A stretch of 63,662 nt of DNA, filler included, from Stramenopiles sp. TOSAG23-6 (lineage: Eukaryota): the NCBI GenBank assembly GCA_900128565.1. It is 7 parts of 7 records of this genome, joined end to end, with 100 filler letters (N's around TTAATTAATTAA, not from the genome) between each part and the next. Parts side by side here need not be neighbours in the genome. Positions count along the whole stretch, not along the records: positions 24,316 to 36,370 come from LT636222.1; 6 more parts are not named here. The stretch is one strand, 5' to 3'. Under the pieces are notes generated by a model. The model had not been told where the DNA came from. It searched no databases and saw only the letters and a list, made by a program, of their open reading frames with translations. Position 1 is the first letter of the stretch. The number at the start of each line of letters is the position of its first letter. This document shows positions 6,357-48,723 of this stretch, piece after piece. The translations under genes were made by a program, and so were the position numbers.

Positions 6357-7605
6357 TTATCCTAGACTAAGATGCTGTAGACTTTTATCCGTGACCCAAA
6401 TATTCATACCATATTTCGTATAACCCTCTTTTATAATAGGCTGAGCTTCATGAACTGTCAAAGGATCAGCTTCATTGGGTCGTTTATTTCTTACATCCAA
6501 ATTTGAAAAAAGCAAAGCCTTACGAGCAATAGGTTGCACGGCTAAAATTGGTTCAAGTGCGGGAAATGCAGTGCAGCCACCAGCCTCAGGGGGTAAATCG
6601 TTGAGATAAACAAAAAAAGTAGCCAAACGTCGAGGAGGTACTATTGGACCACATTGGCCATTTTCATCAAGGGAGCAGCAATCATATATCGTAAAAAAAT
6701 ATATTGTTTTTTTGTTAGGTACAACATTTCGTATGAAAAAAAAATTGAAATTCATGATGAAAACATACATGATGTACGTTAAACTTTTGACCCATTGTGT
6801 AGCTTACAATTTGCAATGGTTCAACATTTTGAGGTGGTACACCTAATATCTCTGCTGCTCGTCTTTCAACTGCTCGAACAACTGTGTCTTGGCCTTTTTT
6901 AAGAAAAATAAACCGAGATGTTCTGTCACTACTCACATGAGAAGCTAAATCATCATCTTCCGTAAAGGAACTTTGAAATCTATTTTTTTCATTCGTAATA
7001 ATGGAACGCAAGTGTAACAACTCCGATTCTGTCAAGAACTCATCAATTGTAAATATATTTGGATTTTCTGGTGCTGGTTTTCTAGACACCAAAGATAGCG
7101 TTCTCCGCTTTGCTCGTTGAGTTAATGGTTGGGGTCGAGAAAATAAGTTGATAAATCTAAAAGGAAGGGGTGGAGTTTTAGCAGATGATCGTCGAAGATG
7201 CGCTCGATGATTTGGTTTTTCTATAGTACTATTTGGTGTCTTACCTTGTGAGTCTGGTGTGTCTCGAGGTCTTATAGACGAAATTACTACACTTGTGTCT
7301 TCACTTCCATCATCAAAAAGTAAGTTATATGTCCAATTACCCTCTGACAAATAATTAATATCAATGATTGTAGCTGGAAAATATGCCTTACCGTATTCTT
7401 CACTTTCCCCACAGTTCCACATTGCCTCTACAAAATCACCAACTGAAAAGGTACTCGGAGGAGTGTGCATTTCTGAGGTTTTGTTTGTAATAATGCTTTC
7501 GCTTGAAAACGAAACACGTCGGCGCTTTGCGTTGCTCTCTAAAACAGTACTAATAACATTCTCTTTGATGGACCCAATATCATTTTCACTTTGAATATGC
7601 GACAT
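6357..7605 (-). CDS. Prolyl 4-hydroxylase-like 2OG-Fe(II) dioxygenase with N-terminal Tudor-like domain (intron 6684-6768, GT-AT)
   Basis: RTS, EPLQIVSY, HH|D motif restored across the intron, RLATFFVYLND, GGCTAFP, HEAQP, KYGMNIW. Confidence 0.88.
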
Positions 7606-8056: not shown

Positions 8057-10992
8057 TCAAAATAAACCAACAATTTTTCCTGATTCATAATCAAAATCAA
8101 TATCATAAAAACCTGGTCTCGTTGGAAGTCCAGGTATCGTCATGATCTTTCCTAATAAAGGAAATACAAAACCAGCTCCAACATTACACCTTATTTCTTT
8201 CACAGCTACGGTAAATCCTGTGGGAACTCCTTTCTTCTTTGGATGTATTGTAAAAGAAACTTGTGAAAAAAAAATTGTTAGGTACAAATTTTTCATATAA
8301 AAAAAAAAAAAAAAATTCTGAAAAAAAAAACATACATCTGTGCTTAAACTCAAATGTGTTTTTGCTATACATATCGGAAATTTCCCCCACCCTTGCTCTT
8401 CATAATATTTTATCGTTTCAGCAACATTATCAGGTATTTCTACACCATCAGCTCCATAAATTTCTCTCGCAATGACTGAAATTTTTTCTTTAATGGGCAT
8501 ACATTGTGAAAAATATTTTTTGTTTGTTGGAAAAATCGTTAGGTACAAAATTTTTATAAAAAAAAAATCAGATTTCAAAAAATTAAAACGTACATGCACA
8601 AAGGATACAAAAATTTGAATCCTGGACTGTTTTGATTCGTTGATCGAGACATTGCACAAACAGACGCAACGGCAAGGCCTAAGTCAGTTGCACCTGCGCC
8701 CCCTGTATTTTGAAAAAATATTTCAAAAAAAAACTAAAATTTGTTAGGTACAAAATTTTTATAAAAAAAAATTTCGAATTTTTTGTAAAAAAAAAAAATA
8801 AAACACACCTTGTGCCCAATGATTTGAAAGAATTGCATGTCCTGCTCCTGCTTCTAAGGCAGCTTTACACACAATATCAATTTCAGAGTTAGTATCAGTC
8901 GCAAATTTATTTACAGCCACAACAGGTGTTATCCCAAATTTCAAAGCACTTCGAATTTTTAGTGTCAAAAAATAATTAACAAAAAAAAAATTGTTAATGT
9001 ATGAATTTTTTTTTAAAAAATTAGAAAAAAAAAAATTTTAGGTACGAAATTTTCTATGAAAAAAAAATAAATTTAAAATTCATGATGTTATACAACGTAC
9101 ATGATGCTGAAGATTACAAACTCCTGCTCGAAGCAAGTCCAAATTTTCTTCTGTGTATTGCGATGCAAGAGGGGTACCGGGTTTCACAGGTGGGCCACCA
9201 CCATGCATTTTCAATGCTCTCACAGTGGCTACAATGACAGCACAGTTTGGGATTAGTCCGGATTGACGACATTTTATATTGAAAAATTTTTCCATTCCAA
9301 TATCAGCACCAAAGCCACATATTGTGAAAAAATATTCAAAAAAAAAATTGAAATTTTTTAGGTACGAAATTTCGTACGAAAAAAAAAATAAATTTGAAAT
9401 TGAAGAGAACAACGTACGCACTCAGTGACACAAAATCCTTCGTCGCCGACTAATTTCAACGCTACTTGATCTGCAACAATGGAAGAGTTGCCATGAGCAA
9501 TATTTGCAAATGGACCAGCATGAACGAAAACATTTGTTGGACAAAATATTTCAAAAAAAAATTAAATTTTGTTAGGTACAAAATTTCGTATGAAAAAAAA
9601 AACCCAAAAAAAATGATTATGGAAATATACAGGTGTTCCTTCTAACGTTTGCATCAATGTTGGCTTGATCGCTTCTGCCATCAATACTGTTAGAGCTCCA
9701 CCAGTACCTAAATCATCAGCTGTGATAGGTTCACCAGATCTAGACTGGCCAATCACCATTCGACCTAATCGATCTCTCATGTCTTCTACTATATTGTGAA
9801 AAAAAAAAAGTTTTGGAAAAAAAATCGTTAGGTACAAAATTTCGTACGAAAAAAATTAAATTTAAAATGAATTGTGAAAACGTACATGATGTGGTCAATG
9901 CCAATATAGCCATAATTTCGCTAGCTACAGTTATATCGAATCCTGTTTGACGAGGTGTACCTTTTTTTTCCGTCGGAGACTCACCGACAGTTATAGATCG
10001 AAGATGTCGATCACAAGTATCAATGACTCTTTTCCAAGTGACTGAATTCGGGTCAATATGTCTTGTGAGAAAATATATTTTTTTTAATTTGTTAGGTACA
10101 AAATTTCGTATGAATTGTTTTAAATGTTTTTAAAATGTTTATAAAATGTTTTTTACATTTTTTTTACGAAAAAACAAATAATACATTACAATTAAAATTA
10201 ATAATGAAAATATACATTCAAACGAGAAAAAGATGTGATTTCATCAGGTGTTAAATTATCAGGATGAGTTTTTTCTATACCAAGTTTTTTTAATCTTTTC
10301 AGCATTACAGGAGAAAAATGACGAGAACCATCTTTTTTTTTTGGACATAAANGTCGAAACAATGCTGCATCCGATTGAGTATCCTCGTGGTACATTCGAG
10401 TATCGATCGCAGCAGCAAGTAAATTATTGGCAGCTGTAATGGCGTGTATGTCACCAGTCAAATGTAGATTAAATTCCTCCATAGGAATAACCTGCGCATA
10501 GCCACCACCCGCAGCACCGCCCTTGATACCAAATGTTGGTCCTTGTGAGGGCTGTCGAAGACAACAAAATACGCGCTTGCCCAGATGTGCGCCTAATGCT
10601 TGACAAATACCAACAGTAGTAGTGCTTTTACCTTCACCAAGTGGTGTTGGATTGATCCCAGCAACTACAACGTAATTACCTTCAGGAGAATCTTTCAATC
10701 TGTCACGAATATCAAGACTCACTTTTGCTTTATATCGGCCATACTGCTCAATTTCACAGGGAAGAATTCCGGCCTCACGAGCGACTTGATTAATGTGAAG
10801 AGGTGTCACACTTTGGGATACTTCAATATCTGAAGGGACAGGCTCAAGGCAACGAAGTTCTTCCCTCTGGGAGACTTCATTATTCTCTGCTCCAAAACAT
10901 AAAGCGAACTCAATTAACTTTTCCCGATCTTCGTAAACACCAGCTTCTTTTGCTAAACGGGAAATATTTCCAACTTGACTCATCATTTGCAA
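8057..10992 (-). CDS. FTHFS: Formate-tetrahydrofolate ligase, 9 exons (introns 10058-10215, 9789-9885, 9532-9630, 9317-9417, 8957-9100, 8703-8808, 8499-8593, 8243-8335)
   Basis: [69 protein letters not shown]; conserved motifs restored at each junction. Confidence 0.96.
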
Positions 10993-12007: not shown

Positions 12008-12060
12008 GTATGTTTTATTTTTTTTTCAATTTCGAATTTATTTTTCATACGAAATTTTGT

Positions 12061-12160
12061 NNNNNNNNNNNNNNNNNNNNNNNNNNNNNNNNNNNNNNNN
12101 NNNNTTAATTAATTAANNNNNNNNNNNNNNNNNNNNNNNNNNNNNNNNNNNNNNNNNNNN
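12061..12160. other. Artificial contig spacer
   Basis: N-run with central TTAATTAATTAA (stops in all six frames), 100 nt. Confidence 0.98.
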
Positions 12161-12865: not shown

Positions 12866-14576
12866 ATGTTTGGTATGTCAGGTGGCATCGATACACTTCA
12901 AGTGGCTCGAGACCGAGCTCGTATGGAGGAATCGGGAAAGTTATTTGACTGGCAGCGAGAATTGCCTCATCCCCGTGATATCTCAACTGGTGGGACAGGA
13001 CCTTTAGCAGATAGAGTTGCTACTATACATGCAGATCAGAAAGCAATTTTACGTGCTCATATAAATGCTTTAGGTCCAAGTCAACAAGCTGCACTTCAAA
13101 ATATAAAGAATAAATATTCAATACGAAAGAAGTTTAGAAAAATTGTAAAGAAGAAAATCAATATGGAATTACCACCTGAACCCTATGGGGAGTATTGGGG
13201 TGTATCAAAAGGTGCTATTCTCACAGACAATGACCCATATGGATTAACTGGTATTTGGGATAAGCCATCAGGTGATGGTTTAACATCTGTATTAAAAGCA
13301 TTAATGTTAATTATTAAGCGAGAAATGATGCAACAGGGAGTTGAAAAACCATTTCAATTACCACAACAAGCTCTCTCCGCTGCTTGCAAAAATTATTACC
13401 CAGATAGTGTTTGGGACGAAGATAAAGATTATTTTGTCCAATTACGACATAAAGCAGCTAGAGCTGCCTTTCAGAAACAACAGGTAAAATCAGGAAGTCA
13501 TAATAATTTTTGTCATCCAGATAAAATTCTCTATGCATTTGATAGGAAATCAACTACTTCAAATAAATATGAAAAAAAAGCAAAACGTATGAATCGAAAA
13601 AGTTTTCTAGGTGTATTAGAAAAAGAACTCCTCATTGGTACAGCTTTACCATTGATACAAAAAGGAACAAATAAAGCGTTAAACTGGCAGAAATTACAAC
13701 ATAGAGCATGGAAATATCGACGTCAACGCTGTGCACATTTGTTACATACTATAGAAAAAGAACAAAAATTAGAACTGGCACGTCAAAAAACTTTACAATC
13801 TGGACAATTTCGTTCTGCGGATCCTCAAGTCATACTTGATCAACAAGTAAAATATGCCAAAGAACGTGCTGAAGCGGCTGATAAATGTTTACGAATATTA
13901 CAAGATTATGGACTAATTACTGCAACAGAAATGTACGTTTGATATGAATTTCTAATTTATTTATTTTTCATACGAAATTTCGTACCTAACGATATTTTCA
14001 ACTAAACTTTTTTTTTCACAATACATGGCTTCATACTTGCAACATACATTAAAAGGATATAAGATAGAATCTAGTACAATGGATGATGATTCTGCAAATA
14101 TGAGTATGAATCAAGTAAAGAAAGCAAAGAAAAATGCTGATGCTATGGTTCATGCTGAAGTCGCATATCTTCGACAATGTCCTGAAATGAAATATTGGAG
14201 ACCAAGTGAAGCTGCATTAGCCAAGTTTAAATCTCCAAAACCACCTCCATTAACTGCTAAAGAATTAGTGCCTGACTTGAAAAGTTTTGCTGGAATTGTT
14301 TTTGCACAGAAAAATTTAGAATATGCAAAAAATCCTGCACAAATTAAGTTATATAATAGACTTACAAAACGTGGAATATTTCATGAAAATCTTCCACCTT
14401 TGTCTGTTCACTTACGAGATGGTGTACAAAGTGGATATTTAAAAACAGGAAAGACTTATGCTGGTCTATTTGGTAGAGGTTTAGCTGAAATCAGTGGACG
14501 ACGAATTCACAATGCTAGAAGTAAACATATTGGTTTATTTGGAGCTATACCTGAAGATTCATATAAAATTATTTAG
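12866..14576 (+). CDS. Hypothetical protein, 2 exons (intron 13933-14026, GT-AT)
   Basis: Removing the intron joins ORFs 12866 and 14025 in frame (GAA AT|G GCT). Confidence 0.75.
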
Positions 14577-14688: not shown

Positions 14689-17477
14689 TTATCCTTCAGC
14701 ATTAATTCCTTCCCATAATTGAGAATGAAAGAAACCACCATTACCTTTCGTTGTTTTCCGTGCAATCATTGCAGTTCTCTTCAAACTCTGAACTAATTCA
14801 ACATTTGCTTGTAAAAACGAAGGTTCATGGTAATGAATCTTGTGCTTTGCACATAAAGCACGTGTTAATTTTCGTGCTTCACGAAGATTATGTCGAGGTA
14901 AACGTGGCCATAAATGATGTTCAATTTGAAATTGTAAACCTCCATGAAACCAATCCATTGCAGGTGAACACGAAACATTCATTGTTGTTGCAACTTGCAT
15001 TTTAAACCATTCATCACTATCATCATTATATGCCTGACCATGATACGTTTTCATTGTAAAATGGGAAATACATATTTGTACATGTAATATACCAGCTAAT
15101 CCATGGGATATTAAAAGAAATGCAACACGTTGGAGCCATGTATCACCACTACTATATACCAAAGGAAGCATCCAACCATGGAAAAACAATAATGAAAGAA
15201 AAGACCAAAACCTCCATGCGACTTTTTCTTTTGTATCACATAGCAAAATAAATGATTGAATGTATAAATTGAATCGTGCAACTCCCATTATAGGATAGAA
15301 CAAGTAATGTTGATACGATACAAGAAACCGTGCAATAGAATCCATTATCATATGTTTTTGATGATATGTTGACCAAAATCCTTTTGTATCATCAAATATC
15401 TTTTCATCAACTGCAAATACTGGTAAATGTTGAATATCTGGATCATTTTCAACAGAATTACATACAACATGATGTACATTATGTGACCGTTTCCACCAAT
15501 TTAATCCAATTCCACCAGATGTATTTAATAAACACAAACCTGCCCATTGATCACGTTCACGTTCATGTGAAATACTAGAGTGTCCACAATCATGACCAAC
15601 AAAAGCAATTTGTTGCCAAAAACAAGCTAAAAAAAAAGCACCTACCAGTGAGGTATGAAATCCGTCACAAAATAGAGTAAAATATATAACTAAACTAAAT
15701 AACATTATTAACCAAATGGATAATATAATGTAATAACTCGCATTTGTTTCAAATAATCCTCTGCGTAAAAGAATTTGACGAATTTCACGATGTTCCTTTG
15801 CAAATTCAGACTCTTTATAATCAACTATTTCACCAATGTAATAAGAAGGAAGGAGTTTTTCATATACTCTTGCTGGATGTATTGTAAATATATATATATA
15901 TGTATATTTTTGTAAGTTAAAATGTTTTGTGAGGTACGCAATTTCGTACGAAATTGTTTTTTTTTTGAGATTTAAAATTTGAAATGAAGACAACATACAT
16001 GATAATTAGCAAATGCATCAGTTACATCTTTACCACCTAAATTTACCAATGGAAGCCAACCTCCAGGATGATTATCAATATATTTTGTAATATCATACGC
16101 TTTACCTTCAATACATATCCATGTAATTTTGAATAATATTTCAAACATTTGATATTTTTTTGTTAGGTACAATTTTTTTTTTTTTTTTTTTTAAATTTAA
16201 ATTTTTTTTTTGTATAAAAAAAACGGACATAAACTCTCACGAGAATTATGTTTAGCTACTTCAGCCATAGTTATTCCTTTTCCATTTCGACTAGCAATGA
16301 ATGCTTTTGCTGCTTCAACTTTAGCTTTTCTATAAAACACAGATGGCGCTAAAACCGCTTTGCCTTCTTCTTCTCTCCATACCATTTTAGGGTTAGGGTT
16401 AATACCACCATCAACTTTTGAAATTCCATTCCTATTATTTTTATGATTTTTTTCATTTTGAATTTTATTTAATCGAATTTCTTGACGTTTTTGTTCTTCC
16501 ACAGTAGAAAAGACACTACCACTATTCTTATCATGACTCTTTGCAAGTCGTGCACTAACAGTTGCAGTCCGTTGAGTCGTTCTCTTCAAATCTAATTGTG
16601 TAAGGCAAATCTCTCCAATGACACAAACAATTAATCCTCCACATCCACCAACTAATGTAGCAGTTAGCATAGGTAAACGGGCAGCAGTACAAAACGAATG
16701 CGACGAAGAAATCAATAATAACCAAGAAACAGTTTCTACGGCAGATCTAATAGTAAATAATTGCCAATTATCAGCGCAATGCACTAGTCGATTATGAACA
16801 ATGGATCCAATGACACTTGTTGGTGTAGATAATAAGCATAGCTGACTCAAAGTGACTAAACAAACTGCCGCTAAAAATGCTTGTATTACAGGATTAATAC
16901 CGATACGATTTGTCATTGCAAAGAACAAAACACCAACTAGACACCACTGTTCAGGGGCGAATAAACCTTGAAAACGCCACTTTTGAACTAATGACGAACT
17001 ACACAGGAATTTTTGTGCCGAAGTACAAATTGAAGTCAAAATGTCACCTGTGACTAGTAAGGCAATCCCACTAGAAGCACCACCAATGTATGTTAAACAA
17101 AACGAATTATATACACTATGAAGTTTTACAGAGACATATATAAAGGACGACAACTCAACAAACGACCGTAGTGCGTTGTTCACCCAATTGTATTGCATTC
17201 TAGTTACCCTATCCAGAATAATATGAGCTGGATGAGCACAAATACCAAGATACTCAAACATGATACCAATTAACATTAAGAGAAGACAAGTGAAGAGAAC
17301 TGTACCAATTGTTTCAAAATCATTGGGAGAGGTAAGTGTAGTTGGAAGAGCCAAGATGGCACAAACAGGGCCAAAGACCTGCGGACGACTTTGCAGCAAT
17401 TCAGTCAAGTTCGATTTTCCAGTAGCAGAGGCTTCAGCCTTTACCGGAGTAGAATGCGCACTCTTTACTTTTGCCAT
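14689..17477 (-). CDS. Cytochrome b5-fused front-end (delta6/delta8 sphingolipid-type) desaturase with long N-terminal membrane extension (introns 16121-16228, 15877-15998; both GT-AT)
   Basis: HPGG haem motif; HDCGH, HNVHH and QIEHH His boxes; KHNSRESL-W and ANYH|P restored across introns. Confidence 0.92.
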
Positions 17478-17854: not shown

Positions 17855-18766
17855 ATGAAAAAATCATCTAAAATACGAGCTCCACAATTACCTTGGATGC
17901 AACCGAAAGTTTCTAATGACAACTCTGGTCAAGATATTTATTCTAGTCGTTCAAATACACTTTATTCAAACAGATCAAATAAAATAAATCCAAGCAATAA
18001 TTGTAATGATGTTGTGAATGAAAATAAATCATATACAATAGAGTCTTCATTATATAATTCTAGTTCAAAAGATATGCTTGAATCGTCTAATTGTAATTTA
18101 GTTGTACGTGCACCAAAACAACTGTATCCAATAACTTGTACTGAAAAAAATATTTGGTTAAGAGAACAAATGTCATTTTATGAGAAATTATGTGATAAAG
18201 CATGGGAAAGACAACGTCATGAAATTGCAAATATAATTAAACAAAGATTGCAAGCTACAGAAAAAGCAATTTTAGATTCAAATATTGTAACACAAAAGAA
18301 AATGACTGAAATGTGGCAAGTTCACTTGGAGAAACAAAACGTATTAGTACGCGAAGAGTTTAATAGAATACAAAATGAATATATACATTCTGATTCTATT
18401 AAAAATAAGATCAATAATGAAACAGTGAATCCTNAAAAAGTACAAAATTCGTTTCATAATAATTTGGAAAATAAGATCAATAATGAAACAGTGAATCCTC
18501 AAAAAATACAAAATTCGTTTGATACAAAACGTTTGAGTGAAAAAGATAATTATTTTGATGAGACATCTAGACTGAATGAAAATAAAAAATTGAGCAATCA
18601 TTTGATATTGACTCAAGACTTTTCAGTAGAAAAAGGAGATATTTTTTCAAATATGGCAAAATTACAGAAAAATGTAGAAAATTTAGCAAGAGAAACTGCT
18701 GAAATTGTCAAATTGTCCTCTACAAAGAAAAATGCAGAAACATTCAAAGAAAAACGTTATTATTAA
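17855..18766 (+). CDS. Hypothetical coiled-coil, N/S-rich protein
   Basis: 303-aa ORF; no recognisable domain. Confidence 0.55.
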   Translation: MKKSSKIRAPQLPWMQPKVSNDNSGQDIYSSRSNTLYSNRSNKINPSNNCNDVVNENKSYTIESSLYNSSSKDMLESSNCNLVVRAPKQLYPITCTEKNIWLREQMSFYEKLCDKAWERQRHEIANIIKQRLQATEKAILDSNIVTQKKMTEMWQVHLEKQNVLVREEFNRIQNEYIHSDSIKNKINNETVNPXKVQNSFHNNLENKINNETVNPQKIQNSFDTKRLSEKDNYFDETSRLNENKKLSNHLILTQDFSVEKGDIFSNMAKLQKNVENLARETAEIVKLSSTKKNAETFKEKRYY

Positions 18767-19068
18767 TTTTTTTTTAGGTACAAAATTTTGTACGAAAAAA
18801 AAAAATTATACACAATTAGAAAAACAGTACAATAAAGAAATGCATTAATATTTTATATCAATACGAATTTCAAATATTCTATTTTTTGTATTTTTTGTAT
18901 TTTTTGTATTTTGTGTAATATGTTTTTAACAAATCAATTCAAATCAACTCAAAAACTCAAAGAAATTGAAAAAAGATCAAAAATATTCAGAAAAAAAATG
19001 ATTTTTTTTAATAGCTTCAGTAGGTTTTTGTATAACTTTCATTATATTTTTTCAACATTTCAATTTTT

Positions 19069-21062
19069 TTAAATAGCTTCAGTAGGTTTTTGTATAACTT
19101 CCATTAATTTTTCCAACATTTCAACATTAGCCATATTACTTTCTTGTAAATGTTTAAATCTGTCCAATGGTAAAGATTGTAACTTTCTTACTTTTTGGAC
19201 TTCTTGACGTAATAATGATGCATCTGCTTCCAATACAAGAATTCGTTTTTCTGCTTGTGCCAATTTTCTGCGACAGTTTTGTTCTGCGACTTCAAAACGT
19301 TCTGCATTTGTTTGAGCAGTTCTGTGTTTTGTATGTAATTCTGTATTTTCTCGGTCTAAAGTACTACATTGTTCACGATAATCACGTGTTTGTTGCTCTG
19401 CTTCATCCACTCGGCGACGTAATAATGCATTTTCCTCTTGAGCTGTTGCATGTTGAACTTCCATATTCGTTTGAGCATCTCTAGAAACACGAAATGCAGC
19501 AGTTATCTCAGCTAAGGCTACTTTATTCATTGCACTATTATTCTTTACAATTCCATGTTCACGTTGAAATAATTCATGTTTTGTGAAACAATATTTTTTT
19601 TATTTTTTTTTTTTAGTAAAAAAATCTACAATTAGGTATAAAAATTCACACTAAAAAAACATAAATGATAAACACGTACATGTCGTTTTCCTAGATCATC
19701 ATGTTTATCCAAGGTACTTTTTAATTTATCAGTGAGTTCATTATTTTTTTTTTCCAATTCAACATTAGTTTTAACCAATTCTGAACAATCTTCTTGTGCC
19801 TTTGTAGCTAACGCTTCAAACTGCTCCATTTTCTTTACTGCTTGTCTTTTTTCTATCTCTGCTTTATGTAAGGCAGATATAGTATTTGTTAATTTATTGG
19901 ACGTGTCAGTTAAAATCGATTCAGTTGTCAATAATTTATCTTTTATTGTACTGTGTTTTGCATGAACTTCTGAGTGTTTATCACCAATTTCATCAACTTG
20001 TTTCTTTGCAACATTTAAATCTAATTCAAATTGTTTTATCGTTGCATGTGCTTTACGTAACTTTGTGCTGTGATCTGCGTGTGCTTCTTCAAGCCGAGAT
20101 GTGGCACTACTCAATTCACTCTGCACTGCACTCATTTGTGTTTCCAAGGCTTGCGCTCTTTTTCTTGAAGCAATGTTACCATGTGTTTTTTCTTTCAATC
20201 TTTTTTCTAATGATTGTTCACGACGAAGCATATCTTCTTTATGTGCTTCCAAACGAGCTTCCCATAATGATAACTGTTCATTTTGTGCTTGTACTAATAT
20301 AACCTGATCACGGACTTTTTTTTCCATTTTGAGTCGATCATCTCGTTGCTCAAGACGAGCTCTATCATACGCCGCTTGTACATCCGCTAAAGTTTTACCA
20401 AGTGAGACAGATGCACCTGGAGCTTTTTCTCGAGTATCTGATATTGGCACAAGTGTAGAAGGCATTTTTGGAACCTTGAAAGACGCTGATGGAATATTTA
20501 CAGGAGGTAAACTGTTGGAGTGTTGAGATGGTTCTGAGAACGAAGGCATTGTTGGGGGTTCTGTTTCTTCTTCTTCCCACGAAGTTTCAGTTTTATCTAC
20601 ATTTTTTGTTTCCACTTTTTTCTCTTCTTGTACAACTGAAATAGATTCAACGGAATGTACATTCATGCTTATGTCACTTGGAATTGCACCACCAACTTGC
20701 TGTTGTCGAAGAACAGCACACTCCATCTCTAATAAGTATATCTGTTGGCGAAGATTATACGTCATTGCATTAGGACTCTCTGATCCTGGTGCAAGATCAT
20801 CCACAGGACTCACATTTTTTGGTGCAGATGTCTTTTCAAATTTATAACCTTCTAAACCAGAAGCTATATCAAGACCAATACCAGCTTCAGTCATTTCACG
20901 TTTTAACTCTTCTAAAGCATCCGTCCGTGGGGAATCACCTCCTCGACGATTTGAATAACCATTACTCTTTGAAACTTTATTCTTTATCTTTCTATTTGAT
21001 CGTGGAGGCCGATACGATCCACGAGAAGAATTGCTGCGATGTTTTCCATTCAACTGTCGCAT
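19069..21062 (-). CDS. Long coiled-coil protein, 2 exons (intron 19576-19679, GT-AT)
   Basis: Removing the intron joins ORFs 19632..21062 and 19069..19530 in frame; heptad-rich. Confidence 0.78.
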
Positions 21063-22404: not shown

Positions 22405-23432
22405 ATGCCTGCATATAAATCAGAATTTTATTTACTCCTTCGTTACGTCTTTTACACAGTTTATTTTTGGCTTCATCTGTTATGGATTCGTCTTAATTTG
22501 TGGCTTAGCCAGGCGTGGGTTCCAAAGACAACAGATATTCGACACAAAATAGTAATTATTGGTGATGGTTTTGCTCTTGGCGTTGGCGATTCCGTCATTA
22601 TGGGCGATAAAGCTGGTATATCATCAAAATTAGAGACAGTATTGGCGCATGAGAGTTCTGTTAGACAACAGTGGATGGTTCTTAATCGAGGCCACTTTGG
22701 TGCTACTTCTGCCGACTGGTTACCTGGGGAAGACGTTGGCAAACCGCGTAAAGAGTATGCAGCAGGAGTATCAAAGTCACTATTCAAAGATACATTCGAA
22801 TCACGCCGTTTCTCTGATGCTGAAATTGTTATTGTAATGGTAGGTTACCACGATCATGAAATAGAAGCCTTAAAAGATCCAGAAATTACCCGTAAGAACA
22901 TACAAAAAATTGTGTCTAAATTAATTGAATTGAAAAAACAAGTATTTATCATGGGAATACCTGAAGTAAGACGATGTAATAGCTTGGGGAAAACAACAAA
23001 GGGTAATGTTGGTGCTCCGGCATTATTATGGAATCGTGAAAGAAATAGACTAGTGAGTCAATACATTAAAAGATGTACGTTTTCAAATTTGAATGCTTTA
23101 CCAATTTCAAATTTATTTTTTTTTCATACGAAATTTTGTACCTAACAAAAAAGATCAAAAAAACAATATTTTCCTACAATACATGTAAAGCCATGAAACT
23201 TCCACTTGATTTTGTTGGAGTCAGTCGATTCACTTCAAACAAAATCTTTGGATTTGATACAGTTCATTATAATTCTGTAGGATATAAACAAATTACTTCT
23301 ACACTTTTCAATGCTTTAACAAAAAGTATAACAATGGTTGAATTTGCCACGTGGCGAAAGAAAATTACTCCTGAATTTTCAATTTTGGAGGAATTAGAAA
23401 AAACAAATTCAACAAAAGTAAAAAAATATTGA
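22405..23432 (+). CDS. SGNH/GDSL hydrolase-like membrane-anchored protein (intron 23075-23184, GT-AT)
   Basis: IVIIGDGFALG block I, NRGHFG block II, DTVHYN block V. Confidence 0.75.
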
Positions 23433-23600: not shown

Positions 23601-24125
23601 CTATGAAAAACCATGTGACATTAGCCAAAGGGCAACATTTGGCCACATATCTTCTTCACATTCATCTCGATCAAGAGAATGATTATCTTTCGGATACCAT
23701 AATAATCGAGTTATACCTATATTATGAAAAAAAATTCAAAAAAAAATCGTTAGGTACAAACTTTCGTACGAAAAAAAAACTAAATTCGAAATTGAAAAAA
23801 AATAAAACATACTTCCATTGGCACGTAAACAATGATAATATTCTAATCCAGTGGATGGTGGAACTCTGAGATCTTTTGCACCTAAACAAAGTAATACTGG
23901 TGTTTTTACATTTGATACATATTTGATAGGACTTGCATCATACATTTGTTGCAATTCTGAAGATGTTGGTGCATGATACTTTTCAAAATTATATGGTAAT
24001 CCTGATTCAACAAAACACCAATCAGGAATATCTGTCGCACCTGACATATTTGCAATATTACAAACAGGATTACGTAATGCAGCAGCTTTAAATATATTTG
24101 GATATTGACCAATTAAATGAGCACC
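23601..24125 (-). CDS. APEH: Acylaminoacyl peptidase (S9C), C-terminal part (intron 23717-23812, GT-AG; 5'-truncated)
   Basis: HLIGQYP, RNPVCN, TDIPDWC, SPIKYV..VKTPVLLCLGAKDLRVP, YPKDNHSL. Confidence 0.88.
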
Positions 24126-24215: not shown

Positions 24216-24315
24216 NNNNNNNNNNNNNNNNNNNNNNNNNNNNNNNNNNNNNNNNNNNNTTAATTAATTAANNNNNNNNNNNNNNNNNNNNNNNNNNNNN
24301 NNNNNNNNNNNNNNN
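24216..24315. other. Artificial contig spacer
   Basis: N-run with TTAATTAATTAA. Confidence 0.98.
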
Positions 24316-24366
24316 TGAAAATTTTGTACCTAACAAATTTCGAATTTAATTTTTTTTACAATACAT

Positions 24367-24488
24367 GTGACGCATTTGAATTAAATGTAGGCTGTCCACA
24401 GCGTGTTGCTCGAAAGAAAAAAATTGGTGCATATTTAATGCGAGATCCCGAACGTTTGATTTCACTTGTAAGTTTTCAAAATTGAATG

Positions 24489-24527
<39 letters not shown>

Positions 24528-25658
24528 TTTTTTACCTAAAAATTTTTTTTTGTACCTAACAATATTTTTTTAAGATTGTATATTTTTCCATACTACATGT
24601 ACAATCTGTTTCAAGAGCTCTGACTATACCTATATTTGTAAAGATACGAATTCTACCAAATATCCGAGATAGTATTGCATTAGCACAAATGTTGGAACAT
24701 GCAGGTGCTAGTGTGATTACTGTTCATGTATGTTTTATTTTTTTTTTTTTTTACTATGAATTTTTTTTTTTGAAAATATTGTACCTAACAAATTTAAGTT
24801 TTTTTTTTTGAAATATTTTTCCAAAATACATGGTCGGATTTTACGACCTGGAAAGGGAGGTAAAAAAGGTGGTGATATCGCTGCAGATTGGTATGCTATA
24901 AAACGAATTCGTGAATCGGTTGATATACCAGTGATATCTAATGGCAATGTTCGGTCATTGGATGATGCGTTAGCTAGTATTGATTATACAGGATGTCATG
25001 GGTGCATGTCTGCATGTGGTCTCTTGGCCAATCCAGCTATATTTTCAGAAAAAAACACGAATATAACAAATATAACAAATATAAAAAATACAACAAATAT
25101 AAAAAGAATACATTCAAAATTGGAATATACAATACCAACTGAGATATCTGGAGTTCCCATTTTGCCATTAAAAGAACGTTTATCATTATGTATAAGATGT
25201 ATGTTTTATTTTTTTTTATTTGAAGTTTTTTTTCTTACGAAATTTTGTACCTAACAATTTTTTTTTTTGAAATATTTTTTCAAAATACATACTTAATCCT
25301 ATGTAAAAAATATCCAGATGATGCTGATAAACGTTGTATTAGTAAACATTTATTTGCGATAATGAAGAATAGACAATGTACCACAAATAAATCTTGTGAA
25401 GTTGATGAAGATGATGATTGTACGTCGACAAGAAATAATTTTATATATATTTTTGATACAATTCATTCTAGTATACATCAATTCCAAAACAAAAAGAATC
25501 CAAAAGAGGACAAAAAAGGACAAAACAAAAACGAAATTCCAGAAGCAAATCAGTGGGAATCATCATTAGGTAGTAGCAATAGTTGTATGTCGATTGGTTT
25601 TCAATCAGATTTGATACATTTACAGAAAATATTTGAGAATTTTTTGAGTGAACTGTGA
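24367..25658 (+). CDS. tRNA-dihydrouridine synthase (DUS1-like), 5'-truncated (introns 24468-24598, 24728-24831, 25199-25290; all GT-AT)
   Basis: LNVGCPQ, GAYLM, VKIR, TVH|GR, ADW, IPVISNGNV motifs. Confidence 0.9.
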
Positions 25659-30300: not shown

Positions 30301-33069
30301 TCTTCACTATTTTCAGAGCAATTTTTTTTAGGTGCAATAATATGCGAAAAAGCAAGCGATGCACCATAATTGTGCCCCATCTTGCCACCTAGACCCAATT
30401 TGGTTCCTGGGGCAACATTTACACCTATTGGTTTCAATGATGATAAATATACGGGAGGTATCGCACCGGAGCCTTCAACTTTTAATATTTTAACACTACG
30501 ACTACTGCCATAAAAACATACGGCGGGAAATACTTCTCCAAAATCAGACATGTTTGTAAAAGCAATACCTTGATCTTCATCATTAACAAAGTACCTCATT
30601 GTCCCAGCCTCCATATCTAACTGTATCTTGATGATATCATCTTTGTAAATTCGTTTACATTTACGACCGTGGGCAACTCCTCTACAATATAATTGTCCAT
30701 TATATGCGCGATACATCCAAAGATCAGGAGATCTCTCGTAACCATGATTAGTGACAGGTTTTGTTGCTGCTCCAAAGCATGTACATTGAGATGTTGTGTC
30801 CTCTGTTAATTGCATCTCCCACGTTGCACTTCCACTACTGAACCCTATATTGAATAAAACGGAACAATAACTGCCAGTAGTGCAGCGGACAACTGTAGAA
30901 TTTTCAGATAAAATTAAACCTGGATGACTCAAAGACTTTGAATCAAATTTAGCAGAGCTTATGAGACCAGAAGAAGAATGATTTGCACCCCGTTTGCGTT
31001 GTGCTGCTTCAAAGATTTGAAGTTGACGAAATTGCTCCTCGGCGTACACTCCAAGCTCACCAATAAACTTACGCGCACTGCTATCTTTAAATACACCATT
31101 AGTTTTTTCGTAGTATTTCGCAGCCCAACCTACATGTTCCTTTAATTTTGATGATTGGCCACTTTTATCTTCTTTTATTATTGAATTACTATTTGAGTCA
31201 GCTTCAACAAGTGTAATCAAAAGTCTCAGTATAGTGACAAATGATCCAGATGCAATAGCTAAATTTGAAAGACATGTTAGCGCTGCATCTTGTATATCCG
31301 AATTTAAATGTGTCGAAAATGCTGACATCCATCGGCGCAGAGACTTCAGAGTCGTGATACTACCATGATTATTTTGTTGCATAGTTGATAGTTCAGTAGT
31401 GAAATCTGTTGCACCACTCATTGTTTCTGTATCATATTTTTCAAATTCATCCGCAGAATTTTCACCTGGTACTTTTTGCAACGAGTGATCATGTTGGCTC
31501 AAAATATGACGCAGGATATCAGACTTACTTGGAGGTAACGGTCGTCTTCTCAGCTCTATATATTTAATTGCATAATATCCATCTATATTGTCAGGGGCGA
31601 ATCCTTTAAAATAAATTCGAAAATGTGTGACTGTTTGTGGTTCTCTTAGATGTGTAGGTACTATTTGATATTCGGTGCTTTCTTTAACATTCCGTCCAGC
31701 ATCAGAAATATTTACATTTTCATTTTTTGCTTTGCTATGAAACTTTTTAAGTGTACTTCGGCTATTTTTTTCTAATCGAGGCATATACAAACGAAAGGGC
31801 TCTTCTCGTTTTGTTTTTAATTCCTGTAGAGTGATACAACGTATTGGGGTCCACACCTTTCTACCTGTTGAAACTTCACATATAATTTGTTGGGGTAACC
31901 ATTTAGTCTCCCAAGTAAAAGAAACTGAAGTTAATACGCATGGATTTCCTAAAAATGCACCCCAGAAACAACGACCTGATGGTTTGGATGAAGACCTCCA
32001 CATACCAGAACTAGCAACAGCATTTCCAGATGCGTTTGATGGACTATGTGTGTGAGATGCAAACGTACATTGTTGCAAAATAGGAATAACTTCGTCTACT
32101 GGTTCAATTGGAGGGACCCAACCACTAAATAAACCTAGAGGGCTGATTTTTTCAAGGACGCTTCCTGCAGAATCCAAGGTTGGCTTGAGCGCGTTGCTAT
32201 CATCACATTTTTCTATACAAATATTGTCTACTAAAGTACCTAAGAATTCAAGACCGATTTCCCGTACTTGAACGCTACGAGACGCCTGTTGAAGTCTTCT
32301 AGTTACGTATAGTGTTGCCTCTTCTCGATTAGAATTCATTTTTATACACAAATCCTGTAGATTTGAAGCTAACGCAGCATGACCATAATTAACAGCAACG
32401 TTAATAGGTGTGTTTTGAGATTTATCACGTAACATTACGTTTGCGCCGTGGAGAACTAGTAACTCTGATTCAGCTGAGCGTCCATTTGCACAAGCAACAT
32501 GCAATGCTGTTGAGCCGTTCGGCATTGAGGAGCGCATATGTGTTGTGAAAAATATTTTACATATAAATTCGTTAGGTACCGAAACTCGCACGGAAAAAAA
32601 ATAAATTGGAAATTCAATTTTGAAAACGTACATCTATATCCGCTCCAGCGTTCAACAAAAGCACTACTATGGCACAACGAGGTCCAGAACCAGGACCACA
32701 TGCTGCATGTAGGCATGTCCAGCCTTGAGCTGGTTCACTATCAATATTATTAGGTATTTGCCACTCTGCTTGGGAAATAGGCGAAGTAGGATGCGGCACA
32801 CTTTGAGACTTTATATCGAGGTCATTAGTCACTGAGGTGATTGTATCCGATGTTTCTGTTGTTTGAGAAATTAATTCATCTGCTACATTTGAGCCTGGAG
32901 GCTCAGATGGTGTTCGAACTTGCATCCGAAGTCGACATTCTACAGACTGTTGTAGAAACCTTTTCACACTCTCTAAATCTCCTCGCCGGCATGCTTCAAA
33001 CAAATCAAGCCTATCTTGCCACTTCATACGCTGCTCCTCTGAAAGATTTGTAGATAATATAGGAGCCAT
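27381..33069 (-). CDS. Large ankyrin-repeat + SPRY + NPCBM-like domain protein (intron 32538-32631, GT-AT)
   Basis: GWTCLHAAC, AGADID|MR, GSTALHVAC ankyrin repeats; SPRY (WMYRAYNGQLY, LDMEAGTMRYFVN..QGIAF, FPAVCFY); FEVWGDGELLW NPCBM-like segment. Confidence 0.8.
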
Positions 33070-33636
33070 TATTTAAATATAATGTTTGAATGGAGAATTC
33101 AAAAGGCGTCACGATATAGACAAAATCAAGTCTACACTACAAAGAAGATCTTTTTATTGTTCCTACTATTTTTTTGAATTACGAATGTACTTTTTGAATT
33201 CAATTTTTTACAGTTTCGCGGAAGTTTCGCGGCGCACGAAATCAATCGAAATAATCGAAATCTTGTGGGTGGAAATCGCGTCACTCGCGCCGCTAAATGT
33301 TAGGCACAAAATTTCGTACAAAATGCGCGGGCTGGAGGAAACTGCGGGGAGCGCAATATACATTCGAAGAAGTTAGAGAAAAGAGTGTGTCATTCTTCAA
33401 GATTTCAATTAGATTTCTTCCCCTATCTATCAAGGAGAAGAAACTATAGATTGTTACGACTTGAGCATGTCCAATTTGTATTATTGATTTTCTTTTTCAC
33501 GAAATGGAAATGTATAAAAATAAATTACAATTATGAAAGACATTTATATTGGTTTTATTACAAATCCGATATCAATTTTAGATAATATTCGTCAATTAAT
33601 AGTCAAAATACTGAAGCTTTTATTTCAGTACACATC

Positions 33637-35639: not shown

Positions 35640-36319
35640 ATGGGAATAAAATCGCTTCTTCAAGTGCTTGACTCTGCTTCAGAACGTCGGCATGTAAGTG
35701 AATATGTTAAAACTAAAAGTAGACCAACCCTTGCGGTCGTTGATACTATGTGCTGGTTACATCGTGCATGTTATAGTTGTGCCACAGAACTTGCTCTAGG
35801 TAAACCAACTGACCGATTTGTTCATTATTTTCTTCGTAGGGTGAAATTGTTGCGTTTAGCTGGTGTTGAGTGTGTTATGATTTGTGATGGTGCTAGTCTC
35901 CCTTCAAAGAGGGATACACAAATTGAGCGTCGAAAACTTAAGAGTGAACAACGTTTGAAGGGAATCGCCCTTTTAGAGCAATCCAAGCAAACCAACGATA
36001 ACACAAAAAAGAAAGCTCTTTTGAAATCAGCTTACGAGGCCTTTCAAAAGTCTATTACAATTACTCCGAGAATCCTTAAGACTCTCTTTGATACACTTTC
36101 TGCTCACGGAGTTCGTCATATATGTACGTTTTCATCATGAATTTATTAATTTATTATTTTTTTGGTACGAAATTTTGTACCTAACAAAAAAATCAAATGT
36201 CTGAAATATTTTTTCACATCATATTTGCACCATATGAAGCAGATCCACAGTTGGCGTACCACACTCTCGATATTGTCTCACAACAATGGAAAGCTGATTT
36301 CATTATTACTGAAGACTCA
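35640..36319 (+). CDS. EXO1: Exonuclease 1, N-terminal part (intron 36124-36224, GT-AT; truncated in next intron from 36320)
   Basis: MGIKSLL, DTMCWLHRACYSCA, DGASLPSK, APYEADPQLAY, ITEDS. Confidence 0.92.
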
Positions 36320-36370: not shown

Positions 36371-36470
36371 NNNNNNNNNNNNNNNNNNNNNNNNNNNNNN
36401 NNNNNNNNNNNNNNTTAATTAATTAANNNNNNNNNNNNNNNNNNNNNNNNNNNNNNNNNNNNNNNNNNNN
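36371..36470. other. Artificial contig spacer
   Basis: N-run with TTAATTAATTAA. Confidence 0.98.
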
Positions 36471-36856: not shown

Positions 36857-39444
36857 TTTTCTTGACTTGTAGATCGAACTAATGACATACCTCTATTTAC
36901 TTTACCATTTTGAGATTCCTTTTCTTTGATGCCACTAATTGGCTGTACTGCTTTTTCTTGAGATTGCTCTGTACGACCAAATGTGAAATCAGATACAGAC
37001 TTATTAAGAGCATGTTTTTCTGGTTTTTCTGGCTTAGAAGAAATCGATTCAGCAAAACTATTCTTTTTGACACTATCTAATTTTGGAGCATCACTAAATT
37101 TAAAATTAGATATGATTGAGGATTGATCTTCCAACAAAGTCGCATTTGTTACATGGATCACTGGAGCATTTGAAAATGTAAATGAATCCTCTGAATTTGA
37201 TGAATTTGATGTTGACATATTTAGAAAAGATGATGATTTGACATGTGAATTCGAATGTATCGTCGTTTTTTCATGTTTTGTATTTTTTTCAAAACTGAAT
37301 GAAAATTCAGGTTTTTTCTTTTCGTCGACAGTTTGAGTAAAAGTAAATGAAGAATTTTTTCTTGTTGCGGCGGCGGAGGGTACAGATGATTGATCATTTC
37401 TATTATTATTATCATTTTGAATTTCATATTTATCAAATACCTCTTTTGTATTATCCAATACCGGAGGTTTTGAAATCGAATCACTTGAACGTTGTTTCAT
37501 ATTAGGCAATGAAAAAGTTAATTTTTTATTCGTTTTCACACCATCTACAACATTTTCAACTACCTCTGGAGAATAAAATAAAGGTTTTGAAACAGTATTA
37601 AAATTCGAATGTACATTTAAATGTACATTTATACCATTTTTCGTACCTAACGAATTTCGAATTTGCTGAGACTTTGCCTGTTCCGTTTTTCTTCGAATAG
37701 GAGCATGTATTTTGGAAAAATATTTCGAAAAAAAAAAACTAAGATTTGTTAGGTACAAAATTTTCAAAAAAAAAAAAATTAAATTCGAAATTAAAAAAAA
37801 ATCGTTAGGTACAAAATGTACTATGAAAAATAAATTCAAAATTGAACAAAAAATAAAACATACAGGTGTTGCAGTATTAGCGTGAATATTTTTAATTTCC
37901 AATGAAACATTTGGTAATTTTTCCACTTCTTTTACATCATTTTTGGAATTATTTCGTGTTTTGCCTTGTCTGACTTTAATAACAGAACCTGTAACACCTT
38001 TAATGCGTTTTTCATTAGAGGGCGGAACAGGAGCTCTTTTGCTACGTGTCACTTCAAGTGGTGTTGACATTTGCTGTAAAGCGGAAAGAATTGAGTCTCT
38101 GATCTTCATTGCTTCATTGGCTTTTTTGGCTTTTGTACTACCACCAACCCTACCAATAGAATTCGATTTCAAATTATTCGTTGCTTCTGTATTGATATCA
38201 CTCAAATTTCGTATACCAGGAGTTGTTCCAGTTAGTAAAGAAGAAGGTCGAGATCGAGATTTATTTTTTAATGAAGAGTAGCGATATTTCGTATGAGATT
38301 TTCTACTTGAACTAAGTAAAGCTTGTTCGGACCAAAAATTTTCATGACCAAATCCTGTTTTTTTTACTGAACTTAATCTACTCTTTGAAATAGTATTTTT
38401 ATGCAGTCTTTGCAATTTAAACGCACGGGGACGAATTTCAGGCGAATTTGCAAAATCAAAATCACCATATTTTGTTGCTGTTTTTTTTGTAAATCTTTCA
38501 CGTTTCCCTCCTACTGTTCTATCCTTAGGGTTGGGGTTATTATTGATATTTTTACGATTTGTTGATACATCTACATTTTCATCATTACAATTTGAATTAT
38601 TATTTAAATTATTATTTAAATTATTATTTGAATTTGAGCCAAACACAAACATCTCATTTGAATGTACATTTGAATGTACATTTGAATGTACATTTGAATG
38701 TACATTTAGATTATTTTGATTATTTCGTGCATGAGATGAAACTGTACCAAACATACGAGGTAAAGTATTTTCAGCATATTGATGACGTCTTTCCCCAGTC
38801 ATCAAACCAGGATAATATCCCGGTACCATAGCAGCAGCTGGAGTGTTAAATCTATTTGTTGAAGTGTTTGAAACGACCATTGGAGTCATCGAAATATCCA
38901 TACCTATAACTCCTCCATTTGTATCGGATACAGCACCATATCTATTAGGGTTAGTCGGTTCAATATACCCCCGATGATACCCTATCGTAGGGTTAGGGTT
39001 CATACTAACACCAAACGGTGTTGCATAGCGATACGATATTCTATGTTGTTGTTGTTGTTGTTGTTGTTGGCATTGGTGGTGGAGGTGTGGCGCAGGAGCA
39101 GGTGTCGCTAAACACATTGGTGTCAATAAACGATGTCCAGGCGAAGTTTGTGTATTAACTTGTTGTCGGATCCTCGAGTCATCTCTATGAGTAAATCTAC
39201 GTATTACATCAACTGGGGTAAGATGTTGCTGAGGATTCCCATTTGATATTATTTGATTATTCGGAGCAACGCGCGTAAAAGATGGACGTACTAAAGGAGT
39301 TTTTTTTGTATGTAATCCTACGGGTTTCGTACCTAACGAATTTCCAATTTGCTGAGTGTCATCATTTTCATTTATATGGATATTTTGTTGAGGGTCAGGG
39401 TTTAAGGTCTGAATATTCTGTTGATGCTCTTGAGATTGTGATAT

Positions 39445-48621: not shown

Positions 48622-48723
48622 ATTTTGGAAAAATATTTCAAAAAAAATCTAAAAAAATTTGTTAGGTACAAAATTTACTATAAAAAAAATTTAGGTAAAA
48701 AATTGAAAAAAAATAAAACGTGC

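Follow-up and report, generated by a model that had tools for sequence, protein, structure and literature searches.

The DNA examined here is one 63.7-kb window (63,662 nt, the whole stretch that was analysed) of the Stramenopiles sp. TOSAG23-6 genome assembly GCA_900128565.1, in which several contigs are joined by linkers. The window is AT-rich (24–41% G+C per 2 kb), and a Pfam scan of 59 open reading frames (ORFs) identified eukaryotic proteins, among them profilin, LSM14, kinases, FTHFS, a cytochrome b5-desaturase, Dus, an EXO1-like nuclease and an RPC82-like protein. The closest named relatives of one window enzyme are algae and stramenopiles, at no more than 57% identity, and sequence of the window was also found in seawater metagenomes and metatranscriptomes, beside small 2015 DNA runs. 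Our subject is the introns of these genes, which include one in the Dus gene at 24728-24831 (+). Most of them begin with GT and end with AT, and they form a dispersed family of highly similar introns that is introner-like in a descriptive sense.

The final set comprises 33 complete, non-duplicated introns, with some tests run at a 30-intron stage. Their 3' dinucleotides are AT (n = 26), AG (n = 5), AA (n = 1) and GT (n = 1), and the donor dinucleotide is GT in 32 and GA in the remaining one. The penultimate intron base is A in 32 of 33 and the last base is T in 27, G in five and A in one; the 3' cut follows Y-A-T in 79% of introns and Y-A-G in 15%, AA and GT being rare. AT also forms the last two exon bases before 24 of 33 introns. 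Where the intron itself ends in AT, exonic AT lies upstream in 21 of 26 cases and exonic T in 25 of 26, which bears out the tallies of the first-pass annotation (about 26 AT-ending introns, 20 after AT and 24 after T). Within the window's coding sequence, 104 of 1220 GT dinucleotides (8.5%) have AT before them, against which exonic AT before 22 of 30 introns has a binomial p of ~1e-17 (30-intron stage). The counts agree with the earlier claim that the usual AG/GT...AG/ pattern (slashes mark splice borders) is replaced by AT/GT...AT/, and the GT-AT majority is confirmed for this window. Judged as U2-type introns, the set has the GT donor, the branch-site box and removal from poly(A) RNA, and AG at the 3' end occurs in 5 of 33 only. 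We found no description of a GT-AT intron majority in the literature searched, subscription journals and supplements lying outside that search, and a word search of single-cell and metagenome papers found "intron" and "splice" only in gene-prediction methods.

The introns are listed below with strand, border sequences and the evidence for each border; HMM stands for hidden Markov model, frame for reading frame and profile for the family profile described further on.

24728-24831, +, Dus gene (Pfam Dus), the intron on which the first-pass annotation centred: 104 nt, phase 0, ...GTTCAT/GTATGTTTTA...CCAAAATACAT/GGTCGG, in short CAT/GTATGT...AAAATACAT/G
24468-24598, +, Dus: TT/GTAAGT...ACTACAT/; ungapped homologue alignment across the junction
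25199-25290, +, Dus: AT/GTATGT...ATACAT/; reading frame only
24317-24366, +, Dus, 3' part cut by a contig end: ...ACAATACAT/; profile
10058-10215, -, FTHFS intron 1: AT/GTATAT...GACAT/; HMM fixes length
9789-9885, -, FTHFS intron 2: AT/GTACGT...ATATAG/; RNA contig and HMM
9532-9630, -, FTHFS intron 3: CT/GTATAT...ACAAAT/; RNA contig and HMM
9317-9417, -, FTHFS intron 4: GC/GTACGT...ATATGT/; RNA contig and HMM
8957-9100, -, FTHFS intron 5: AT/GTACGT...CTAAAA/; length by HMM, GT-AA if the consensus GT is the donor (register inferred)
8703-8808, -, FTHFS intron 6: AG/GTGTGT...ATACAG/; HMM
8499-8593, -, FTHFS intron 7: AT/GTACGT...AATGTAT/; HMM
8243-8335, -, FTHFS intron 8: AT/GTATGT...AATACAT/; HMM, acceptor also in a DNA metagenome contig (X3 record 4)
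16121-16228, -, cytochrome b5/desaturase: AT/GTCCGT...ATTACAT/; best-scoring border, homologue HMM
15877-15998, -, cytochrome b5/desaturase: AT/GTATGT...AATACAT/; homologue HMM
6684-6768, -, 2OG-Fe(II) oxygenase gene: AT/GTATGT...GATATAT/; frame, Pfam on the downstream exon
2244-2331, +, profilin, diverged and without the TACCTAAC box: AT/GTACGT...ATTAAAG/; frame, sole stop-free acceptor
13933-14026, +: AT/GTACGT...AATACAT/; frame, profile
23075-23184, +: AT/GTACGT...AATACAT/; frame, profile
36124-36224, +, EXO1-like (XPG_N) gene: AT/GTACGT...ATCATAT/; frame
42517-42630, +, RPC82-like gene: AT/GTATGT...ATACAT/; frame, profile
42813-43031, +, RPC82-like gene: TA/GTATGT...AATAAAT/; frame, profile
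43366-43500, +, RPC82-like gene: TC/GTATGT...ATTCAG/; frame, profile
43607-43713, +, RPC82-like gene: AT/GTATGT...ATATAT/; frame, profile
43885-44005, +, RPC82-like gene, GA donor: AT/GAATGT...ATACAT/; frame, profile
60057-60272, +, with a nested element resembling a miniature inverted-repeat transposable element (MITE) at 60084-60222: AT/GTACGT...AATGAAT/; frame
61408-61515, +, kinase gene: AT/GTATGT...ATACAT/; frame, profile, 89% identical to 24728-24831
19576-19679, -: AT/GTACGT...AAAACAT/; frame
23717-23812, -: AA/GTATGT...ATATAG/; frame, profile
32538-32631, -, ankyrin/SPRY gene: AT/GTACGT...ACACAT/; frame, profile
37705-37863, -, with an internal tandem duplication: CT/GTATGT...ATACAT/; frame, profile
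46844-46948, -: AT/GTATGT...ATACAT/; frame, profile
47522-47627, -: AT/GTATGT...ATACAT/; frame, profile
47780-47885, -: AT/GTATGT...ATACAT/; frame, profile
54612-54861, -, Tweety-like gene: CT/GTACGT...CATTAT/; frame
12008-12060, +, 5' part of a family intron cut by a contig end: CAT/GTATGT; profile
63611-63662, +, 5' part of a family intron at the window end, A at +1 in place of G: CAT/ATACGT
60551-60652, +, 5' part of a family intron, GC donor: TAT/GCACGT; profile, mirrored at 48622-48723
60336-60442, +, family intron, consensus border GAT/GT...AACAT/ out of frame

Borders are supported by RNA contigs or homologue profiles for 12 of the 33 introns (three by RNA, nine more by profile) and by reading frame plus family consensus for 21; in the latter the consensus lies in frame between open exons and a 3-nt shift is possible. 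Screens for ORF continuity alone were too permissive for fixing borders. In poly(A) metatranscriptome contigs from two studies, exons are joined across three FTHFS introns, one each with GT-AG, GT-AT and GT-GT ends. Contig X7 record 20 joins 9886 to 9788 without 9789-9885 (GT-AG, a unique register). Missing from contig X9 record 25 are 99 nt at 9530-9630, readable as GT-AT or the equivalents TG-AA, TA-TG and AT-GT and never as GT-AG or AT-AC, and 101 nt are absent at 9316-9417 from contig X7 record 19, as GT-GT or TA-TG. Removal from poly(A) RNA at GT...AT, GT...AG and GT...GT borders is shown by these contigs, and window parts lacking RNA cover are uninformative on splicing either way.

For FTHFS, a protein-seeded metagenome scan yielded 80 loci at 65–75% identity, which were judged bacterial because the genes are uninterrupted; no relative of this organism was among these 80 loci, and 40 uninterrupted FTHFS from metagenome loci were built into a profile that served as a reference only. 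Against it the proposed removal has the best or near-best score in eight of eight introns, and all variants in which the excised piece is 3 nt longer or shorter lose 4–5 bits. The profile fixes the removed length and leaves the register within a few bases unresolved, the register of intron 5 (GT-AA) being taken from the donor consensus. A homologue HMM likewise supports both cytochrome b5/desaturase borders. A search with the Dus exons found a single homologue, the Dus1 homologue P0001, with an ungapped alignment over two of three Dus junctions, the third lying beyond the aligned part. Once 24728-24831 is removed, the Dus protein aligns to it gap-free across ...ITVH/GRIL..., and this intron matches the family profile at E=2e-11. 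The border of the EXO1-like intron is given by the frame only: in an alignment to PDB sequences the upstream match stops 43 residues short of the junction and the 48-residue downstream exon has no match.

Could the pattern be an artefact of single-cell amplification or assembly? The construction of the window offers some grounds for the suspicion. Its contigs are joined by N44-TTAATTAATTAA-N44 linkers (12061-12160, 24216-24315, 36371-36470, 48522-48621, 60653-60752 and 62158-62257), and contig 48622-60652 is an inverted chimera, in which 48622 to ~54310 is the exact reverse complement of ~54964 to 60652, with ~650 nt of unique sequence at the centre between the arms 48622-54310 and 54964-60652. 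It looks like a single-cell amplification chimera, and its junction destroyed the 3' end of one intron. That intron, with its donor at 54417 and a seeming CA end, was rejected as a false exception to the AT rule, the chimera junction lying inside its 3' block. We nevertheless hold an artefact to be exceedingly improbable, for the same design recurs in 33 introns on nine contigs, independent DNA metagenome contigs (X3 records 1 and 4–7) carry the same intron ends and the RNA contigs display the splices. Introns on the mirrored arm were counted once only. Also outside the counts are eight introns truncated by contig ends or the chimera junction, the intron 48179/48167-48009 with an ambiguous donor (GTGAGT or GTTTGT), 59822 with an ambiguous border and 60336-60442, whose consensus border is out of frame.

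With a median of 106 nt (range 85–250 nt), the introns nearly all follow one design of about 100 nt, (C)AT/GTAYGTTTT, a TACCTAAC box and TTTTTYCAMAATAYAT/G, so that a single copy contains all the parts of a splicing unit. In the exon-end consensus (C)AT, C occupies -3 in 13 of 30 introns, A occupies -2 in 24 and T occupies -1 in 25. The T-rich stretch after GTAYGTTTT runs into (C)RTACGAAATTTTGTACCTAAC(A/G)A; the internal box TTGTACCTAAC resembles the yeast branch site plus one extra C and lies mostly 31–53 nt from the 3' end; and the 3' block TTTTTGAAATATTTTTYCAMAATAYAT is followed by an exonic G in 17 of 30 introns. The acceptor is not the first candidate met downstream of the branch box: an upstream YAT, at least 8 nt past the box, is skipped in 23 of 25 AT-ending introns, and an AG 15–18 nt past the box is skipped in several, e.g. 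8335 and 24468. Since these YAT and AG decoys are passed over, the terminal dinucleotide alone cannot define the 3' site, and some feature within the conserved 3' block must mark it.

Several copies depart from this layout. Donor variants at the aligned GT occur in the putative introns at 43885 (GA), 60551 (GC), 63611 (AT, as ATACGT after exonic CAT) and 48179/48167 (GTGAGT or GTTTGT). A tandem second half, from branch box to 3' end and lacking a second donor, is present in 37705-37863, 42813-43031, 43366-43500 and 54612-54861. The ankyrin/SPRY gene has a candidate 5'-leader intron at 33250-33360 (-), AAT/GTATAT...CACAAGAT/, whose middle is GC-rich and whose family core is partial. The 16-nt box that precedes the branch site, GTACGAAATTTYGTAC (e.g. 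9366-9381, -), is palindromic almost throughout, and the profile matches it on both strands; its 5' arm is missing in many copies, and the copy of the intron with donor 54417 has, by eye, a changed 3' arm and no matching 5' change.

A shifted register would turn the GT-AT ends into a 2-nt ambiguity artefact, the introns really being AT-AC introns (/ATGTAT...ATAC/AT) of U12 or U2 type. The mRNA is identical for GT-AT, TG-CA and AT-AC readings in 21 of the 26 AT-ending introns, so the AT-AC register is formally possible for those 21; U12-type AT-AC introns resemble the present ones in tolerating non-AG 3' ends, and a GT-AT subtype of U12-type introns has been reported. Even so, we regard this reading as very improbable. 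Five of 26 AT-ending introns lack the exonic AT and cannot be read as AT-AC, including the RNA-supported FTHFS intron 3, and the aligned donor is GT in 32 of 33. The U12-type consensus has an ATATCC or GTATCC donor and a TCCTTAAC box 10–15 nt from the 3' end. Here, by contrast, no intron starts with ATATCC or GTATCC (0 of 33) and about 31–53 nt separate the branch box from the 3' end in most introns. One ATATCCTT word at 60038 was tried as a U12 donor and rejected, as it gives no open frame.

The similarity of the introns extends well beyond their borders. A family profile built from 20 seed introns gave 47 matches at E<=0.01, of which 44 fall in sense-strand introns. Mean pairwise intron identity is 0.65 versus 0.57 after shuffling, and identity to the nearest neighbour ranges from 0.58 to 0.89, against a shuffled-control mean of 0.57 and a maximum of 0.71. 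In 26 of 30 introns the most similar intron belongs to another gene; the Dus intron 24728, for example, is closest to the kinase-gene intron 61408 on another contig, at 89% identity. This all-against-all comparison, which the first-pass annotation had proposed, upheld its statement that introns of unrelated genes can be aligned along much of their length, with similarity in excess of shuffles, neighbours mostly in other genes and at least two subfamilies. The subfamilies, for which the evidence comes from this window only, are seen in the linkage of position +4 (T/C) to position -8 (A/C), ~90 nt apart (Fisher p=0.016): GTACGT donors are paired with ...CACAAT... 3' ends in 10 of 11 introns, and GTATGT donors with ...CAAAAT... 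in 10 of 17. Furthermore, one 5' half (...GTTTTCATCATGAATTT...) is common to four introns of four genes and another (GTTTTATTTTTT) to 12 others. Signals that every intron needs would not come as linked alternatives, hence descent from source copies is the better reading of this linkage.

The family also behaves as a repeat in assemblies, since six contig ends lie inside family introns and the assembly is broken there. In one DNA metagenome, bins with family cores have a summed contig depth of ~1,000–23,000 compared with 6–9 for exon-only bins, summed depth not being copy number; breaks and depths together fit a very high copy number. The core motif had no matches in viral contigs. One match in prokaryote genomes, lacking both donor and 3' block, was set aside as chance. 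Profile matches outside introns, partial or weak, are found at 18766-18825, at 33297-33323 (5' leader) and at 37615-37659 (weak, antisense). Weak antisense core matches (GTACCTAACGAATTTC.AATTTGCTGAG) at 37615-37659 and 39325-39345 (+) lie within a 1587-codon ORF on the - strand and are coding (..SQQIRNSLGTK..); a protein repeat and exonised fragments are the two possibilities.

The mirror between exon end and intron end was compared with shuffled partners. The two dinucleotides are identical in 22 of 33 introns versus 19.1 expected (p=0.03), and the direct repeat spanning the junctions averages 2.61 nt versus 2.30 nt (p=0.01). The mirror is mostly a consensus property, with a small intron-specific excess, such as real duplications would give, over two strong general preferences. 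To the eye, the nested palindrome (C)AT/GTAT...ATAC AT/(G) could equally be a plain inverted repeat or the trace of a duplication, of 2 bp (AT) or of 4 bp (CATG); the low frequency of G at exon +1 (17/33) speaks against the 4-bp duplication.

Much of this could be expected of ordinary, vertically inherited introns under constraint, in a spliceosome that needs unusually long signals and in which the two ATs are independent consensus features. AT being a poor 3' mark, selection would keep a long 3' block and a strict branch box, and the exonic AT would reflect recognition on the donor side by U1 or U5. Practically all window introns share the design, even the diverged profilin intron (AT/GTACGT...AAAG/); exonic AT is also found before AG- and AA-ending introns (3/7); marginal frequencies alone explain 19.1 of the 22 dinucleotide matches; the unused upstream YAT in 23 of 25 implies that extra 3'-site information is needed; and full-length copies outside introns are lacking in the window. 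What constraint accounts for poorly is the extent and structure of the similarity. About two thirds of each 100-nt intron is conserved, which to our knowledge exceeds any described splicing signal, differing 5' halves are each common to several unrelated genes, there is linkage between +4 and -8, nearest-neighbour identity reaches 89%, and the intron-specific junction repeat is small and significant (p=0.01–0.03). We consider constraint on its own rather unlikely.

Pairing between the intron end and the exon end plus donor, (C)AU/GUAU with AUAC AU(G), is another way in which the borders could be linked: a helix would join the splice sites and define the AT, whose self-complementarity would be the reason for its preference. 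As the first-pass annotation described, ATGTAT(G)TTTT at one end and AAAATACAT at the other form a short, imperfect inverted repeat, and the consensus CATGTAT...ATACATG spans 6–7 nt. The six consensus pairs, from exon -2:intron -1 through +4:-6, form in 19–30 of 33 introns. Most GTATGT-type copies have a predicted minimum-energy fold with CAUGUAU/AUACAUG as its closing helix and 6–7.5 expected end pairs; FTHFS intron 4 (GC/...GT/) has complementary ends (G.U, C-G) and no direct repeat; and the insufficiency of the terminal dinucleotide would suit such a helix. The same helix is mostly missing from GTACGT-type copies, of which few close in this way, and it is short and mainly A-U. Pair frequencies equal those of shuffled partners for five of six pairs, +4 C is matched by -6 G in 0 of 13, and compensatory changes are absent. 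Introns fold no better than shuffles (mean z -0.65), and FTHFS intron 6 (AG/...AG/) has a direct repeat that is not complementary. End-to-end pairing as an aid to splicing, the second proposal of the first-pass annotation, thus survives as a consensus-level helix in folds of GTATGT-type copies, and draws no support from covariation or folding energy. We judge it improbable as the explanation of the AT ends.

The explanation we favour, at slightly better than an even chance, is that these are spliceosomal-type introns, nearly all of one self-similar family that has spread by copying at AT, in a host whose spliceosome tolerates U at -1. A short non-autonomous element carrying its own donor and branch site would have been copied into transcribed genes in the manner of an introner. 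By inserting at AT or duplicating AT, it would leave one copy as the last two intron bases and the other in the exon. Removal would be by the U2-type spliceosome, with the second step or the 3'-site factors of the major spliceosome accepting U at -1, and the cut would be positioned through the conserved 3' block, either by a protein or by 6–7 bp of pairing with the (C)AU/GUAU donor region. Copying might proceed as a DNA element with a 2-bp duplication or by RNA-level reinsertion at (C)AT/G junctions, both routes being possible; an AT-duplicating transposon is plausible. The origin from AT-targeting introners or MITEs put forward in the first-pass annotation accordingly holds as far as the dispersed family of similar introns and the AT/GT...AT/ pattern are concerned, while a DNA transposon or MITE and a target duplication of AT are hypotheses.

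Several observations weigh against spread by copying. Nearly every intron belongs to the family, unlike in classic introner species, and this would fit a lineage-wide constraint equally. Exonic AT precedes 21 of 26 AT-ending introns but also three of seven others (one-sided Fisher p=0.068). At only 6–7 nt (~10 nt if a gap is allowed), the inverted ends fall on the splice signals, and they are less marked in the GTACGT subfamily. RNA shows only one AT-ending junction, RNA or homologue support extends to only 12 of 33 borders, and the consensus border puts the family intron 60336-60442 out of frame. No full-length family copies, intergenic or antisense, were found outside sense introns in the 63.7 kb, and no transposase, whether or not with the matching termini that the first-pass annotation proposed to look for, is present among the 59 scanned ORFs. 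As to presence/absence polymorphism, metagenome DNA contigs carry at least five of the introns, and no intron-less joint occurs among 15 of the 285 joints. The window also contains a genuine MITE-like element, which shows what a clear case looks like and is quite unlike the family introns. This element, nested at 60084-60222 and mirrored in the other arm of the chimera, has 39-nt arms that are 92% complementary with (TTTTTTAGG)n between them, CCCTAACT direct repeats on both sides (~7–8 nt) and a predicted hairpin of -62.6 kcal/mol.

A wider version of the copying scenario, in which GU-AU introns are the main class of a whole uncultured marine lineage, an AT-duplicating element having replaced almost all ancestral introns and the spliceosome having co-evolved to accept U at exon -1 and intron -1, is a possibility we put forward tentatively. 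If it is true, the proto-splice symmetry AG/GT...AG/ was rebuilt as AT/GT...AT/ by insertion and not by independent evolution of signals. Few features of eukaryotic genes vary as little as the G that closes an intron; in this window about four fifths of introns have T in its place, with donor, branch box and the A at -2 canonical. This is a clean natural experiment on 3' splice-site reading and directs attention to U2AF-type factors, step-2 factors and the contact between G+1 and G-1. Because exon and intron ends have changed together, in introns that are mutual copies, it becomes directly testable whether the symmetry originates in insertion or in the splicing machinery. A U1 5' end complementary to CAU/GUAYGU, a U2 box matching UACCUAAC or an altered or duplicated U2AF would be informative if found. 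Gene finders that assume GT-AG would mis-annotate this organism in single-cell and metagenome assemblies.

Other unusual intron systems share parts of this logic, the closest being the introns of Fritillaria borealis, followed by the introners of Micromonas and Aureococcus; the non-canonical introns of Amoebophrya also rank among the nearest known cases. Most F. borealis introns are reported to break the GT-AG rule, with exonic TAC forming a 3' site (Henriet et al. 2019; PMC11282704, bioRxiv 10.1101/2025.08.15.670264). The types met most often are AG-AC and AG-AT, the introns have been proposed to derive from MITEs, and an adapted U2-type spliceosome with a divergent U2AF is implicated (PMC11282704, bioRxiv 10.1101/2025.08.15.670264); AG 5' ends, highly diverse borders, terminal inverted repeats (TIRs) and target-site duplications (TSDs) are also described (PMC11282704). 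As in Fritillaria, the exon end is repeated here as a non-AG intron end, AT/...AT/ in 21 of 33 introns. Unlike in that account, the donor is GT in 32 of 33 and the 3' end AT or AG in 31 of 33, with a strong GTAYGT and a yeast-like branch box. Only position -1 is relaxed (T 27, G 5, A 1), one family makes up almost all introns, and TIRs and TSDs are putative.

Introners of Micromonas pusilla and Aureococcus anophagefferens bring one splice site with the element and take the other, a 3' AG, from the flanking duplication, with GT/GC-AG borders, clear TIRs and a duplication of 3 nt or of constant length (PMC11282704, PMC7789003). Similar introns across unrelated genes and marine hosts are points in common, whereas here a putative AT duplication yields a non-canonical 3' site and the inverted ends span 6–7 nt. 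Introner elements of Amoebophrya have direct repeats of 3–5 nt over the borders, inverted repeats of 8–20 nt, no preferred terminal dinucleotides and non-canonical 3' ends; a transposase was not found for them, and U1 is reported to be apparently missing (PMC7789003). The present introns share the direct repeats at the borders, the inverted repeats linking intron ends, the non-canonical 3' ends and the failure to find a transposase, but differ in their uniform GT...AT ends and strong U1-type donor and branch signals. In euglenids and hemistasiid diplonemids, nonconventional introns have ends that can pair and short junction repeats, with no conserved borders and no U1 complementarity (PMC12621601, PMC11282704); diplonemid splice-site regions prefer C and G, and few of the introns have a YTRAY branch motif (PMC12621601). 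Pairable ends, junction repeats and non-GT-AG borders recur here; a conserved GTAYGT donor, a canonical AT-rich branch box and folding no better than shuffles set the present introns apart. From all of these, the case described here differs in having a fully canonical donor and branch box, a change confined to the last base and a single family that supplies almost all introns.

Two further features of the window were recorded. An Rfam scan gave tRNA-Lys as the sole match, a tRNA-Lys(CTT) gene at 50866-50938 (+) and 58336-58408 (-), the second copy being due solely to the chimera. A telomere-like word, AACCCTAACCCTA, occurs at nine unique sites compared with ~0.04 expected per strand: at 43211, 43238, 61275 and 61569 (+), at 38997 and 16397 (-), and also at 42837, 59859 and 55582. 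It is always sense to the local gene, and its six exonic copies all encode Asn-Pro-Asn-Pro, in unrelated proteins. The word includes the branch-box core CCTAAC and resembles a tandem 6-nt duplication.

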